Of a DNA stretch of 64,000 nt, positions 14,007 through 57,713 are shown one piece after another (position 1 is the stretch's first letter; every line of letters starts with the position of its first letter). The position numbers and the translations under genes were made by a program. Source of the stretch: Candidatus Latescibacterota bacterium (GTDB lineage: Bacteria; Latescibacterota; UBA2968; GCA-2709665); NCBI GenBank assembly GCA_963662665.2, contig CAXXJS010000050.1, positions 1-64,000 on the forward strand, given 5' to 3'. Below the pieces are notes generated by a model. That model had not been told where the DNA came from and ran no database searches. It saw only the letters and a program-made list of their open reading frames with translations.

Positions 14007-14081
14007 TGGTGACCCCGAGGGGAGTCGAACCCCCGTTGCCGGGTTGAAAACCCGGTGTCCTAACCACTGAACGACGGGGTC
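14007..14081 (-). tRNA. tRNA-Glu(TTC)
   Basis: GACCCCG acceptor stem, anticodon arm CCGGG-TTTTCAA-CCCGG, GGTTCGACTCC, 3' CCA. Confidence 0.97.
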
Positions 14082-14316: not shown

Positions 14317-14393
14317 GGGCGATTAGCTCAGCTGGTTAGAGCGCTGGTTTCACATACCAGAGGTCACTGGTTCGAGTCCAGTATCGCCCACCA
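14317..14393 (+). tRNA. tRNA-Val(CAC)
   Basis: GGGCGAT acceptor stem, anticodon arm CTGGT-TTCACAT-ACCAG, GGTTCGAGTCC, 3' CCA. Confidence 0.97.
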
Positions 14394-14507: not shown

Positions 14508-15221
14508 ATGAAAGAAAGCCTGCATAGTCTCTTGAACCTGCAACGCGTCGATACGGAACTGGACAAACTCAGAAAGGTGCAGACAGATTATCCCGAAGCA
14601 ATTGCGGAAATACGCAAGAAGGTCGACTCCGCAAAACAGGCGGTGGACGTCAAGAAGGAGCAGGCTGCGGAACTCGAAAAGAACCGGCGTCACGTGGAGG
14701 GTGAATTGGAGGCAATACAGGCGGATCTGAAAAAACACCAGGACCGTCTCTACGAAGTGAAGACCAACCGTGAATATGATGCGCTCCAGATTGAAATCGA
14801 AGTCCTTAGAAACAGGGCGGACGAAAACGAGACCATTATCCTGGAGGGTATCGAGCAACACGATGACCTGAAAGAAATGTTGAAGGAGGAAGAGAGCGCG
14901 TACAAGGCGCTGAAAGCCGAATATATGGCGGAAATTAAAGACCTGCAGAGCCGTCTGGATCGCGTCGATGAAGACGCCCGCGGGTGGCGCGAAGAGCGGG
15001 AGGCTGCGGAAACCGACGTGGAAATGCGGGTTCTGTCCACGTACAGCCGGATCCGCGCCGTTGTCAGGGACGGGGTCGCCGTGGTGCCGATCGGCAAGGG
15101 TTCGTGCGGAGGGTGTTTCAGGGAGTTGCCGCCGCAGCGTCGTATGGAGGTCCGTCGGCAGGACCGGATCCTTCGCTGTGAGAACTGCGGCCGGATCCTG
15201 GTGTGGCGGGAAGATGCCTGA
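14508..15221 (+). CDS. Coiled-coil C4-type zinc-ribbon protein (DUF164/CT398-like)
   Basis: LQRVDTE, KTNREYDALQIEI, CGGC..CENCGRIL. Confidence 0.92.
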   Translation: MKESLHSLLNLQRVDTELDKLRKVQTDYPEAIAEIRKKVDSAKQAVDVKKEQAAELEKNRRHVEGELEAIQADLKKHQDRLYEVKTNREYDALQIEIEVLRNRADENETIILEGIEQHDDLKEMLKEEESAYKALKAEYMAEIKDLQSRLDRVDEDARGWREEREAAETDVEMRVLSTYSRIRAVVRDGVAVVPIGKGSCGGCFRELPPQRRMEVRRQDRILRCENCGRILVWREDA

Positions 15222-15645
15222 CGTGGCGGGCGGCGATACGATAACGCTTTACGTGGACGGCGCGGCGAAGGGGAATCCCGGCCCGGCGGGCATCGGCGTA
15301 CGGGTTGAACTCAAGGGCGTGGTCCTGTGTGAACAATCGGAATTCATTGGCAACGCCACTAACAACGTGGCGGAATACAAGGCCCTTATTTACGGTTTGG
15401 AAATTGCCCGGAGGCTGCGGGTAACGCGTGTCAACGTTGTCTCAGACAGCGAGTTGATCGTCCGGCAGATGAACGGCCGGTACAATGTAAAGAACGAGAA
15501 GCTGTTGCCGTTGTATCAAAGCGCCCGCGAACTCGCGGTGCCGTTCGACGGATTCCGGATCCGCCACGTCTCGCGTTCGGAGAACCAACACGCCGACCGC
15601 CTGGCCAATCAGGGGATTTCGGACGCCATGAAACGCAAACCGTGA
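15214..15645 (+). CDS. rnhA: Ribonuclease HI
   Basis: YVDGAAKGNPGPAG, TNNVAEYKAL, SDSELIVRQM, HVSRSENQHADRLAN. Confidence 0.93.
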   Translation: MPDVAGGDTITLYVDGAAKGNPGPAGIGVRVELKGVVLCEQSEFIGNATNNVAEYKALIYGLEIARRLRVTRVNVVSDSELIVRQMNGRYNVKNEKLLPLYQSARELAVPFDGFRIRHVSRSENQHADRLANQGISDAMKRKP

Positions 15646-15673
15646 GCAGCCGGGCGGTTCACGAACCCACAAT

Positions 15674-16180
15674 TCAGGCATAGCGGGCCGGATGGCCGCG
15701 CCTGTAACAGTCCGTTGAGAGCGTCGTTCTGCTGGCCAGGCCGGGCAAATCGGCAGCCTGAGCCGGACTGCCTGCTGAAGCATGCGAGGCGGACCGCAGA
15801 CCGGAAGGACCTTTTCAACGGGCTGTTATGGGTGAGGAAAGTCCGAGCTCCACAGGGCAGGATGCTGGGTAACTCCCAGGCGGGGCAACCCGAAGGAAAG
15901 TGCCACAGAGAACAGACCGCCAGCGGGCGAAACCACGGTTTCGTTGCGGGCAAGGGTGAAACGGCGGGGTAAGAGCCCACCGCGCTCCCGGAGACGGGAG
16001 CGGCACGGTAAACCCCATCCGGAGCAAGGCCAAATAGGAGCGGAGAGGCGGCCCGTCTCGATAAAACGCTCGGGTAGGCTGCACAGAGGCGTCGGGCAAC
16101 CGGCGTCCCAGATAAATGGCCATCCGTCCGGCGCTTTAGCGGCGGACGACAGAACTCGGCTTACAGGCCCGCTTGCCTGA
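15674..16180 (+). ncRNA. rnpB: RNase P RNA (bacterial A-type) with an extended P3
   Basis: GAGGAAAGTCCGAGCTCC, GAAAGTGCCACAGA, GGTAAACCCC, GAGCAAG, ACAGAACTCGGCTTA; P1 AGCGGGCC/GGCCCGCT; P2 GGATGGCC/GGCCATCC. Confidence 0.96.
15705..15828 (-). mobile_element. MITE-like inverted-repeat element inside rnpB P3
   Basis: TAACAGTCCGTTGAGAG...CTTTTCAACGGGCTGTTA; both ~35-40-bp ends align with the element at 57455-57619. Confidence 0.8.
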
Positions 16181-16214
16181 TACAGCTTCTTAGAATCCCT
16201 TCCAGGAGCGAGGG

Positions 16215-17039
16215 GTGAGCTTTCTCCAGAAATTCCGCGACGCCGCCGACACCCGAAACAGTCGGGTCTGCGTGGGCCTCGATCCCGATCCGCAACGCCT
16301 GCCTGCCCACCTCACCGGAACCGCGAACCCGGTCTCTGTATTTCTAAGGGAAATCGTCTCCGCCACGCAGGACCTTGTCTGCGCCTACAAACCCAACTTC
16401 GCCTTCTTCGGCGCGATGGGGCCGGCGGGGTGGCAGAGCCTCACGGATGTCATCCATGCCATCCCCGACACAACGCCCGTTGTGCTCGACTTCAAGGCGG
16501 GGGACATTGGCAACTCCGCCGCGCGCTACGCACAGATGGCTTACGAAAGGCTCGGCGTGGACGCGGTCACCGTCAACCCCCTTATGGGCGCCGACGCCGT
16601 GGCGCCCTTCCTGGACTACCGCGACCGATGTGCGTTCTTGCTCTGTCTCACGTCCAATCCCGGCGCGGCAGACTTCCAGCGGCTTTCCACAAATGACGGT
16701 CCTTTCTACCTGCACGTTGCGAGGAAAGCCGTAGAATGGTCCGCCACGGGCCCCTGCGGCCTCGTGGTCGGCGCGACTCACGTTGGTGAACTCGCCAGCG
16801 TCAGGGGCCTCGCGCCGGAACTTCCCATCCTGGTCCCCGGCGTTGGCGCCCAGATGGGGGATCCCGCGGCCGTGATCCGGCACGGCGCAGACGGGAATGG
16901 CGGCGGCCTTCTCGTCAACGCATCCAGGAGCGTACTCTACGCTTCCTCCGGTCGGGATTTCGCGGCCGATGCCAGGAAAGCAGCCGAAGGGCTTCGCGCC
17001 AACCTGGAACGGGAGCGGTCGGCGTCATTGAGCGAATAA
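16215..17039 (+). CDS. pyrF: Orotidine-5'-phosphate decarboxylase
   Basis: CVGLDP, YKPNFAFF, DFKAGDIGNS, LTSNPG, GLVVGAT, LVPGVGAQ, NASRS. Confidence 0.96.
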   Translation: MSFLQKFRDAADTRNSRVCVGLDPDPQRLPAHLTGTANPVSVFLREIVSATQDLVCAYKPNFAFFGAMGPAGWQSLTDVIHAIPDTTPVVLDFKAGDIGNSAARYAQMAYERLGVDAVTVNPLMGADAVAPFLDYRDRCAFLLCLTSNPGAADFQRLSTNDGPFYLHVARKAVEWSATGPCGLVVGATHVGELASVRGLAPELPILVPGVGAQMGDPAAVIRHGADGNGGGLLVNASRSVLYASSGRDFAADARKAAEGLRANLERERSASLSE

Positions 17040-56491: not shown

Positions 56492-57247
56492 GTGCGCCGT
56501 GAAAAGGCGCGGAACTTCAGTGGGTGAGAGTCCCACCCGACAGATGTTGCCACAGTCGGAAGCAATCGGAGCGGAGACGTAGGTAACGACATCTCCGAAG
56601 CCTCCGGTGTAGAGGGTCGCCAGGCGACTCGGCGAGTATGTGGGCTGAAACGTGAGTAAACGCTGAGCAGGCCTCGAAAAGGGTAATGCGGGAGCCGACC
56701 CGGCTTGCGAACGGGGAAGGCCGCCGTCGTTGGGGAAGCAGGCAACGAGAGCACCCAACGGTCCCGCCGGGGTAATGGCGGAGGCACGCATACAAGGAGA
56801 TCCGACGCAACACGGGAAGCCCCAGCGGTGGTGGAGAGCCACCAACCGGAAGCCCGTGAGGGCCAGGCCGGGCCGTATGGGGTGGCGGACAGGCTCGTAG
56901 TACCTGTGATGCCGGGTAACGCCGGCGGAGGAAAGGGGCCTGACTTCGGATGTGCTTGTGAAGGGGACAACTGTCGGGAGAGTGGCGCAAGCCTATAACC
57001 TCCTCCAGAATAAGACGAGGCGACTCCAGATCAAGCTAAGGTTTCAGGTGAAGCTGTCCGGGCAGATCGGGCAGTGTGTACCTGAAGGCGATGTCCGTCG
57101 GAGAGCCGGATGCGGTAACTCCGCACGTCCGGTTCGACGAGCGGGATGTGGAAACGGAGCAGGGAGGGGCTATTGAGGCACCGCCAGACGAAAGGGGCGG
57201 GAACAGACAGGCCACTCCTAAACCACCGCGCCACATCTCGACTCTAC
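56492..57247 (+). mobile_element. Group II intron RNA lacking a reverse-transcriptase ORF
   Basis: 5' GTGCG; DV GAGCCGGATGCGG..CCGCACGTCCGGTTC (57103-57135); DVI with bulged A ending CTCGACTCTAC; EBS1 TTGCGAA matches the 5' exon TTCGCAA. Confidence 0.92.
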
Positions 57248-57454
57248 TTCTTCGGGGAAGTAAAACCGAATATTTGCAAGTAGATAAAGGCGATTTAACT
57301 TCTGATTACCAGGATACACCAGGTCACTGGACGTGGACTGAAAAAACGTCCTTTTTGACGACCGTTACGGCCAGCTTCAAGGGTTTTCGTCGCGTTGCCG
57401 AGTTGCTGTTTTTTTCACATTGAGGCTAATGCCTGCCTGTGCGTCACTCGATCC

Positions 57455-57619
57455 TGACAGCCCGTTGAAAAAGTCCATCCGGTCTGCGTCCGGCCCTTGC
57501 GGCCGAATGACTGAGTTGCGCCCCCTCCCCGAATCCCCGATTCGACGCGGTCGCGCGCCTTGTCTTCGGCCACAATGACTCGGCCTCGCCTGCAGAGCGA
57601 CTCTTTCAACGGACTGCTA
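57455..57619 (+). mobile_element. Complete ~165-bp MITE
   Basis: TGACAGCCCGTTGAAAAAGTC...GACTCTTTCAACGGACTGCTA terminal inverted repeats; no ORF. Confidence 0.8.
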
Positions 57620-57713
57620 AGTGAAACCTGCCGGCAAACCCACTTTTCGCCCCGGAACCCGTCCTTTGAAAGCGCAGCCTGCCGTAGTCTGCCTCTCTTT
57701 GCTGTGCGCCGGT

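Follow-up and report, generated by a model that had tools for sequence, protein, structure and literature searches.

Introduction

RNase P RNA is an essential ribozyme of nearly all organisms, and the length variation of its peripheral helices can rarely be traced to an origin. Vioque reportedly described, in 1997, short tandemly repeated repetitive (STRR) heptanucleotides in helix P12 of the RNase P RNA of heterocyst-forming cyanobacteria. In bacterial 23S rRNA, helices 25 and 45 can hold intervening sequences (IVSs), which RNase III excises, leaving a fragmented rRNA. Rickettsia palindromic elements (RPEs) have been found fused in the genes of tmRNA and M1 RNA, according to the account in PMC2229807 (citing Ogata et al. 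2002). The Correia/NEMIS elements of Neisseria, which are a type of miniature inverted-repeat transposable element (MITE), have been described there as transcribed in the form of hairpins that are cut by RNase III (PMC2649163, PMC2229807). Here, we analyzed a stretch of 64,000 nt from a Candidatus Latescibacterota bacterium (the window; assembly GCA_963662665.2, contig CAXXJS010000050.1, positions 1 to 64,000), in which a MITE lies within helix P3 of the RNase P RNA gene (rnpB).

Repeat DNA inside rnpB is already known from Rickettsia, as far as that account describes it. New at the present locus are a transposon-type MITE with a defined partner insertion sequence (IS) and an exact insertion site, the P3 tetraloop. 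Its apparent recurrence, its decay and its loss within a single genus are likewise new, as is a footprint that fixes a longer P3. A literature search combining RNase P RNA or rnpB with MITE yielded no report of such an insertion. We consider it probable that a MITE of an IS with DUF772 and DDE_Tnp_1 domains was inserted into the P3 tetraloop of the sole rnpB gene, and that it was tolerated as an extension of the hairpin.

Results

In the window genome (G000; other G numbers denote the genomes of relatives), the RNase P RNA gene is of bacterial type A. It runs on the forward strand from the 5' to the 3' strand of P1 (15682..16173), covering 492 nt with the insert. Read from the sequence, P1 consists of AGCGGGCC (15682-15689) paired with GGCCCGCT (16166-16173), and P2 of GGATGGCC (15690-15697) paired with GGCCATCC (16118-16125). 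The first base of GAGGAAAGTCC is 15834, which gives a P2–P4 spacing of 136 nt, and TA dinucleotides flank the insert at 15705-15706 and 15827-15828. A preliminary description of the sequence had already placed P1, P2 and the two TA dinucleotides here; these positions held, with the 5' end of the RNA at 15682.

The ancestral base of P3 is a 5-bp helix found in all 22 genomes of the family. Its 5' strand, CGCCU (15699..15703), is paired in the pair table with GGGUG at 15830-15834. In the Infernal alignment, this 3' strand continues into the 5' strand of P4, GAGGAAAGUCC (15830..15844). The forward-strand insert occupies the apex of the helix. On its left is the flanking tetranucleotide GTAA (15704..15707), which derives from the P3 tetraloop, the duplicated target site, and has since diverged. 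The MITE proper follows as CAG...CTG (15708..15825), a copy of 118 nt that is internally deleted and has a T-type arm on its 5' side. The partner of GTAA, the right flanking tetranucleotide TTAT (15826..15829), lies on the other side.

For comparison, we collected the P3 sequences of 15 genomes of the genus (the window genome and 14 congeners) and of seven genomes from four other genera of the family. All seven of the latter have an empty P3 of 15 nt, GCGCCC-NNNN-GGGTG, with 5 bp and a tetraloop. Within the genus, G001 and G011 also lack an insert (P3 of 16 nt with a 5-nt loop). At the other extreme, the 181-nt P3 of G012 contains a full 165-nt copy, about 92% identical to the G000 consensus and oriented as in the window, while the 118-nt copy gives the window a P3 of 137 nt. 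Remnants of 31–59 nt were found in four congeners. G013 (P3 of 72 nt) has just the two arms left (59 nt with the flanks). G009 and G004 (49 and 47 nt) retain a 31-nt hairpin of the right arm, and G007 (48 nt) retains a 31-nt right-arm hairpin in the opposite orientation. The P3 of seven congeners (G002, G003, G005, G006, G008, G010 and G014) measures 29 nt, the two tetranucleotides enclosing CAGTCCG+CTG or a version that differs by one base. These are the first seven and the last three bases of the element, a 10-nt footprint that results in a 12-bp P3.

All longer P3 alleles align to the MITE ends. Filled and empty alleles occur at the P3 site within one genus, which is evidence of mobility. 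The preliminary description had proposed an insertion into the P3 loop and recommended a search for insert-free alleles in relatives. Such alleles exist in the seven genomes of other genera and in G001 and G011, and they locate the site at the P3 apex. Its suggestion that insertion could be a route to long P3 helices is supported by the footprint and the 12-bp helix of the seven congeners.

A further copy concerns the surroundings of the gene: in G010 (L059), a full MITE copy ends 13 nt upstream of the start of P1, and none is present there in the sister genome G014. The empty site of G014 differs by one extra base, hence the match is inexact. With this copy in place, any promoter of the G010 gene must be sited within the element or else be farther off by more than 165 nt. 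We also scanned metagenomes with a 21-nt P1–P3 word. Four loci were obtained: one rnpB gene with a G006-like allele and three chance matches in coding DNA.

The RF00010 covariance model matched the window with 259.1 bits (gathering threshold 100) and a reported span of 15815-16179, compared with 286–308 bits for the congeners without large inserts. The P4 strands GAGGAAAGUCC ... ACAGAACNCGGCUUA and the remaining core were aligned by Infernal at high posterior probability. The model is unable to accommodate a 120-nt insertion in P3, and P1–P3 were mis-paired inside the element: a piece of the insert was set against the 3' strand of P1, and the non-canonical pairs were flagged. We located P1, P2 and the P3 base of the window by hand, and they are homologous to the P1–P3 that Infernal aligned in the congeners. 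In G002, G007 and G013, with 13, 32 and 56 extra nt in P3, Infernal took CAAGCGGGCCGGAUGGCC as P1/P2 and assigned the extra bases to the P3 loop. The same P1/P2 sequence is present at 15682-15697 of the window. G012, with its 165-nt insert, was misaligned as in the window and received the identical score of 259.1 bits.

Since the congeners with shorter inserts align correctly, the RF00010 5' end at 15815 is an artefact. The misalignment of P1–P3 also explains the lowered score, from about 300 to 259 bits for a large P3 insert. Rfam/Infernal annotation therefore places the rnpB 5' end 133 nt too far downstream in G000 and G012, where the P3 insert is large. The Infernal search had been proposed in the preliminary description; it found the gene, with the 5' part misaligned. 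Across 151 sampled genomes of the phylum, 138 of which gave a match, the misaligned 259-bit pattern was confined to G000 and G012. Three minus-strand open reading frames (ORFs) of 102–123 aa overlap rnpB in the window (15442-15783, 15609-15980 and 15815-16123) and could be called genes. Covariance-model annotation can thus misplace 5' ends by more than 130 nt, and gene callers can then put spurious ORFs over rnpB.

The G000 assembly comprises 4.86 Mb in 66 contigs, with 92% completeness and 5.4% contamination. The segment 15700-15833 matched 64 places in this genome by BLAST, so the ends do belong to a dispersed family, as the preliminary description had expected of such a genome-wide match. 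A scan with the 15-nt end motif (up to 3 substitutions) gave 331 matches forming 66 inverted pairs, 59 of which span at most 400 nt. The pairs are spread over many contigs, and their ends read CAG(T/C)CCGTTGA(A/T)AAAGTC in inverted orientation. The sizes of the 59 copies range from 53 to 325 nt, with peaks at 160–163 nt (16 copies), 70–72 nt (8) and 325 nt (4) and many intermediate values.

One of the 16 full-length copies lies free in the window, on the reverse strand (57458..57616), in the orientation opposite to that of the P3 copy. It is bordered by CTGA (57454-57457) and CTAA (57617-57620) and is 90–96% identical to the other full-length copies. This is the free element near 57455-57619 whose ends had been matched to the insert from the outset. 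The P3 copy belongs to a subfamily with a 27-nt extra segment, which it shares with four other G000 copies. Its arms are 80% identical to the family consensus, a value that ranks 32nd of the 37 copies of at least 100 nt, the consensus being derived from the other subfamily. Its best other match in its own genome reaches 85% identity over 72 nt. By its divergence, the P3 copy of the window appears to be old.

All 14 congeners carry the family, with at least 20 matches each, whereas a single weak match was obtained in 26 other genomes of the family and order. Four G000 copies are exactly 325 nt long (C21:136358-136682, C31:94922-95246, C40:190281-190605 and C40:247494-247818) and have the same ends, so that they may represent a MITE variant that is longer or composite. 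The 18-nt end motif is widespread in public genomes. Among the matches listed, full-length copies with 86–98% identity to the G000 consensus came from records labelled Candidatus Latescibacterota and Gemmatimonadota; their loci include L072, L079, L095, L109, L136, L105 and L156. The 18–21-nt end motif alone was also found, among the matches listed, in records labelled Planctomycetota, Marinacidobacterales, Nitrospirota and others. Either submitters have given differing labels to one lineage, or IS and MITE ends have spread across phyla.

The flanks of the copies define the target site. Identical tetranucleotides border 21 of the 59 copies (TTAG 8, CTAA 5, TTAA 5, ATAA 2, CTAT 1), and the flanks agree in at least three of four positions in 44. 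Of the 29 copies in which both flanks have TA at the center, 24 match at one outer position and 23 at the other. In a control with shuffled partners (1000 shuffles), the means were 13.2 and 12.1 and the maxima 22 and 20. The family thus duplicates a 4-bp target, NTAN, and the element proper is accordingly CAG...CTG (15708-15825). The preliminary description had delimited an element with inverted repeats at 15705-15828; its nature as a MITE stood, and its limits were moved inward by the duplication. Intact repeats are preserved at the same P3 site in G013 (TTAT/TTAT) and G002 (GTAT/GTAT), which means that the duplicated target was the whole P3 tetraloop.

Several candidates for the parent element were discarded. 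A 2-bp TA duplication, as in MITEs of the IS630/Tc1-mariner type, was rejected because the duplication is 4 bp. An IS630-type partner was rejected as well, the nine DDE_3 elements of G000 (two types) having unrelated ends. Seven long inverted end pairs (1.08–2.2 kb) were examined as possible autonomous copies and turned out to enclose ordinary genes and no transposases.

Suitable autonomous relatives were found in other genomes. The IS of G154 is 1,499 bp long, has the ends CAGCCCGTTGAAAAAGTC and is bordered by CTAG duplications in all three copies examined. Its 473-aa product matches DUF772 (PF05598) with 74 bits and DDE_Tnp_1 (PF01609) with 23.6 bits against a cut-off of 23. G001, of the same genus as the window genome, has four intact IS relatives, whose ORFs of 442–448 aa are 56–57% identical to the G154 transposase. 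The two examined are 1,552 bp long, with the ends CAGCCTGTTGAAAAAGTA / CAGTCCGTTGAAAAAACG, the flanks CTAC/CTAC and CTAT/CTAT, and a 448-aa ORF. The G001 IS shares up to 16 terminal bases with the MITE. In G000, a degenerate IS fragment is all that was found of the autonomous relative. The DUF772 and DDE_Tnp_1 domains place the transposase in the IS5-like superfamily. Duplications of 4 bp with the pattern YTAR are typical of IS5. As to the spread of these elements, the 10.2-Mb genome G154 (locus L202) contains at least 120 near-identical 1.5-kb ISs with MITE-type ends, and 150 DUF772 matches were listed for it; this is a massive IS expansion.

The insert together with the P3 base was predicted to fold with −76.5 kcal/mol (z = −6.1), and none of 200 shuffled sequences was as stable, which answers the folding check proposed in the preliminary description. 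When the whole 492-nt RNA was folded, P1, P2 and P3 with the insert were formed in both the minimum free energy (MFE) and the centroid structures, the 5' strands of P1 and P2 (15682..15697, forward strand) being paired in both. The arms of the P3 copy, the flanking tetranucleotides and the P3 base yield 23 consecutive pairs, followed by a further helix. Every P3 allele was predicted as a single hairpin on the shared 5-bp base. The shortest predicted helices have 5 bp, others have 12 bp with UCCG as the cap, and the rest are rods with between 20 and about 60 pairs, including the hairpins of 137 nt and 181 nt; in the window, the 5-bp helix becomes a 137-nt hairpin with about 50 predicted pairs. 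Across the P3 extension of the seven 29-nt alleles, 94.4% of the cells pair, and one pair (G-C versus C-G/U-G) is the sole two-sided change. The earlier claim that the insert extends the basal P3 helix thus agrees with the predicted fold of every allele, and its other half, that the mature ribozyme keeps the insert, is something we infer.

Exactly one RF00010 match was present in each of the 41 genomes searched (the window genome and 40 relatives). The second, insert-free rnpB that, as the expressed copy, would have refuted the preliminary description was accordingly not seen in the G000 assembly, which has one RF00010 match. The gene of the protein subunit, rnpA, is present in G000 (54.9 bits, a 136-aa open frame). 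No match to PIN_5, the Pfam family to which we take the HARP enzymes to belong, was obtained in G000. The 340-nt core of rnpB is 93.2–97.4% identical to that of 13 congeners. Neighboring coding DNA is 71.6–86.7% identical where alignable, and two comparisons, at about 52–58%, were spoilt by indels. The 17-nt 5' segment with the P1 and P2 strands (15682-15698) is identical in 12 of the 13 congeners. Conservation of both the core and these 5' strands indicates that the two gene halves flanking the element are under purifying selection, which speaks against a transcript whose 5' end lies downstream of the insert. Taken with the single rnpB copy, the presence of rnpA and the lack of a HARP-like match, this conservation makes it almost certain that the rnpB with the insert is the working gene.

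Three RNA libraries and one other run were compared with the region 15600-16250. A 444-nt contig from an RNA library represents the 29-nt P3 allele of a relative, in which 11 other letters stand in place of 119 nt. Two RNA libraries have identical pieces, which are confined to the conserved core (15848-16039 and 15895-16039). In another public run, a 1,556-nt contig shows 0 differences over 15600-15920; it may stem from the same source.

To follow the history of the insertions, we used a tree of 1.7 kb comprising the rnpB core and its flanks, with P3 excluded. The clade (G012,(G001,G009)) is supported by 100/100 and 99/98. The seven 29-nt alleles and G004 make up a clade of eight species (100/100), and G000, G007, G011 and G013 have no supported placement. 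G012 and G009 have in common a right arm that is identical over 25 nt and has a derived TTTATC, and their right flanks are odd in the same way, which points to a single insertion before their split. If so, G001, which is nested between them, must have lost the insert or had its allele replaced. The 27-nt segment of the window P3 copy is absent from the G012 copy, and the G007 remnant is inverted. These differences point to at least two to three separate insertions at one tetraloop. Alternatively, there may have been one old insertion, the interior of which was later exchanged through recombination with further MITE copies. We also considered that the MITE might favor hairpin loops in general, which would account for recurrence at P3, and found no support: at least five complementary flanking pairs occur in 2 of the 59 copies, against 6% of 19,996 random NTAN sites.

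Other structured RNAs and the neighborhood of the gene were inspected as well. In the phylum sample, seven other long full-length rnpB genes were fetched and four were shown as alignments; all four turned out to be P12 expansions. These RNase P RNAs of 427–566 nt, from other families of the phylum (L188 in G069, L189 in G062, L190 in G050 and L194 in G067), carry inserts at the P12 tip that measure from 56 to about 200 nt. RF00010 matches covering model positions 20-222 or 223-303 alone were seen in G057 (C3:106527-106738, L192), G058, G052, G060 and G073; that of G057 lies inside a 130-kb contig. Such partial matches may mean that the gene has a large interruption or that one of its halves is very divergent. 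The tmRNA measures 360 nt in all 16 full-length matches of the 15 genus genomes, i.e., it has no insert. G007 has two full-length tmRNA genes 2.2 kb apart (C1:2870202-2870561 and 2872398-2872757), and the other genus genomes have one each.

In the window, rnpB is preceded by an RNase H-like ORF (RVT_3 / RNase_H; 14968..15645, forward strand) and followed by a pyrF-like gene for orotidine 5'-phosphate decarboxylase (16215..17039, forward strand). A CT398-like zinc-ribbon/coiled-coil ORF shares the segment 14460-15645 with the RNase H-like ORF, and tRNA genes lie further upstream at 14010-14081 (reverse strand) and 14317-14390 (forward strand). The RNase H-like gene precedes rnpB in all 21 family relatives examined, and a tRNA gene lies upstream in two. 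A match to group II intron domains D1-D4 (RF02003, 89.7 bits) was found at 56518-56655, some 800 nt upstream from the free copy of the MITE.

Discussion

With the above results in hand, we propose the following course of events. A MITE derived from a DUF772 and DDE_Tnp_1 IS would have transposed into the NTAN tetraloop capping P3 and duplicated the loop. Because the insertion is at the apex of a hairpin and the ends of the element are inverted repeats, the transcript would be expected to continue P3, prolonging it as a long, self-contained and irregular hairpin. P1, P2, P4 and the rest of the ribozyme would be unaffected, and rnpB would stay functional and under purifying selection. The insert may be tolerated because it merely prolongs the P3 hairpin; it is presumably transcribed, kept in the active RNA and near-neutral. 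Over time, internal deletions would trim it to the 10-nt footprint and leave a permanently longer, 12-bp P3. At the DNA level, this interpretation is supported.

Several observations count against it. The target duplication of the P3 copy is degenerate (GTAA/TTAT), and just the central TA is still shared. RNase III cuts near-perfect duplexes of 23 bp. The completeness of 92% and the contamination of 5.4% leave room for a second rnpB or another RNase P. A scan of 15400-16300 revealed no sigma-70-like promoter upstream of rnpB, and none inside the element either. In the three RNA libraries, no RNA contig runs across 15703-15821 of this allele. Covariation in the 29-nt alleles is not significant, 95 of 500 shuffles equalling the one double change, and we rejected it as proof of a selected P3 extension.

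The duplex just mentioned raises the question of whether the MITE hairpin is removed after transcription by RNase III, as are the IVSs of 23S rRNA, leaving a two-piece ribozyme. A 5' fragment of about 25–45 nt would then be held to a body of about 350 nt by P1, P2 and the P3 base. The 23 consecutive pairs and the further helix of the insert would offer a substrate, and P1, P2 and the P3 base would provide at least 21 intermolecular pairs. In vitro, M1 RNA can be rebuilt from pieces, and rRNAs that are fragmented still function. To our knowledge, a fragmented bacterial RNase P RNA has not been reported, none of the literature searches having been directed at this question. MITE hairpins in Neisseria transcripts are described as RNase III substrates (PMC2649163, PMC2229807). 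Excision is, however, not needed to explain tolerance, the short remnants with a 12-bp P3 being too short for RNase III, and we regard a two-piece ribozyme as unlikely.

That the insert-bearing gene is disabled or dispensable, with a second rnpB or a protein-only enzyme hidden in the unassembled 8% of the genome, gains some room from the 92% completeness and from the report that some bacteria encode both RNase P types (as indicated in PMC9945441). This explanation is nevertheless highly improbable: a single RF00010 match was found here and exactly one in each of the 40 relatives, the core is conserved at 93–97% versus 72–87% for the neighbors, rnpA is kept and PIN_5 gave no match in G000. Moreover, the complete or near-complete genomes G012 (2 contigs), G007 (1) and G013 (3) carry inserts in their only rnpB. 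An assembly artefact, i.e., a repeat-induced chimera in a metagenome-assembled genome, might be suspected for an element repeated about 60-fold in a 66-contig assembly, but it is scarcely credible given that the sequence of the P3 copy is unique (85% over 72 nt for its nearest match) and lies far inside the contig, 15.7 kb into the 64-kb window. The 1,556-nt contig of another run, perhaps not independent, shows 0 differences, and analogous inserts occupy the same site in six congeners. Insertion into the P3 tetraloop with retention as a hairpin extension thus remains the reading that we prefer.

A broader scenario can be offered, which we hold as a tentative and rather doubtful one. The P3 tetraloop might be a recurrent landing site of the MITE in this genus, as differences in subfamily, orientation and flanks suggest, with loss on one or more occasions and with insertion and decay generating longer P3 helices, and the ribozymes with inserts of 120–165 nt might be in two pieces after RNase III cleavage. 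If this is true, the longer P3 now fixed in half of the genus was produced by MITE insertion followed by decay. It would also be a bacterial, datable case of 'expansion segments' of a structured RNA arising from mobile DNA.

The origin of a change in helix length is directly readable at this locus. One genus displays all the stages: empty, 165, 118, 59, 31 and 10 nt, and secondary loss. The alleles provide a concrete and testable mechanism for helix expansion in structured RNAs, and, as natural variants, they could serve to find out how much additional RNA is accommodated by P3.

The P12 expansions of the same phylum resemble the present case in that a peripheral helix bears a lineage-specific insert (56 to about 200 nt) at its tip; they affect P12, not P3, and Rfam absorbs them as loop insertions. 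The cyanobacterial STRR sequences are also said to be genome-wide repeats that lengthen a peripheral helix of a functional RNase P RNA. They are, however, short tandem repeats in P12, whereas here an inverted-repeat transposon with a target duplication sits in P3. As in the 23S rRNA IVSs, an extended hairpin replaces a peripheral terminal loop, is tolerated and occurs sporadically among close relatives. IVSs are removed and generally cannot be recognized as MITEs; the present insert is a recognizable MITE that is presumably retained.

The Correia elements, as the cited accounts describe them, are MITEs comparable in size, and their inverted repeats fold into a long RNA hairpin if they are co-transcribed with a host gene. 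Those elements lie in mRNA leaders or trailers and modulate expression, while the element described here is inside a structural RNA gene. The Rickettsia case shares with ours a small, dispersed palindromic repeat inside the RNase P RNA gene that is presumably tolerated. To the extent that the cited account covers the RPEs, they belong to another phylum and an unrelated element, and they also reside in tmRNA, which has no insert (360 nt) in the genus studied here. What sets the present element apart from the RPEs so described is that its inverted ends are clear, that it duplicates 4 bp, that an autonomous IS relative can be identified, and that it occupies a defined site, the P3 tetraloop, with empty, full, decayed and lost alleles in one genus.

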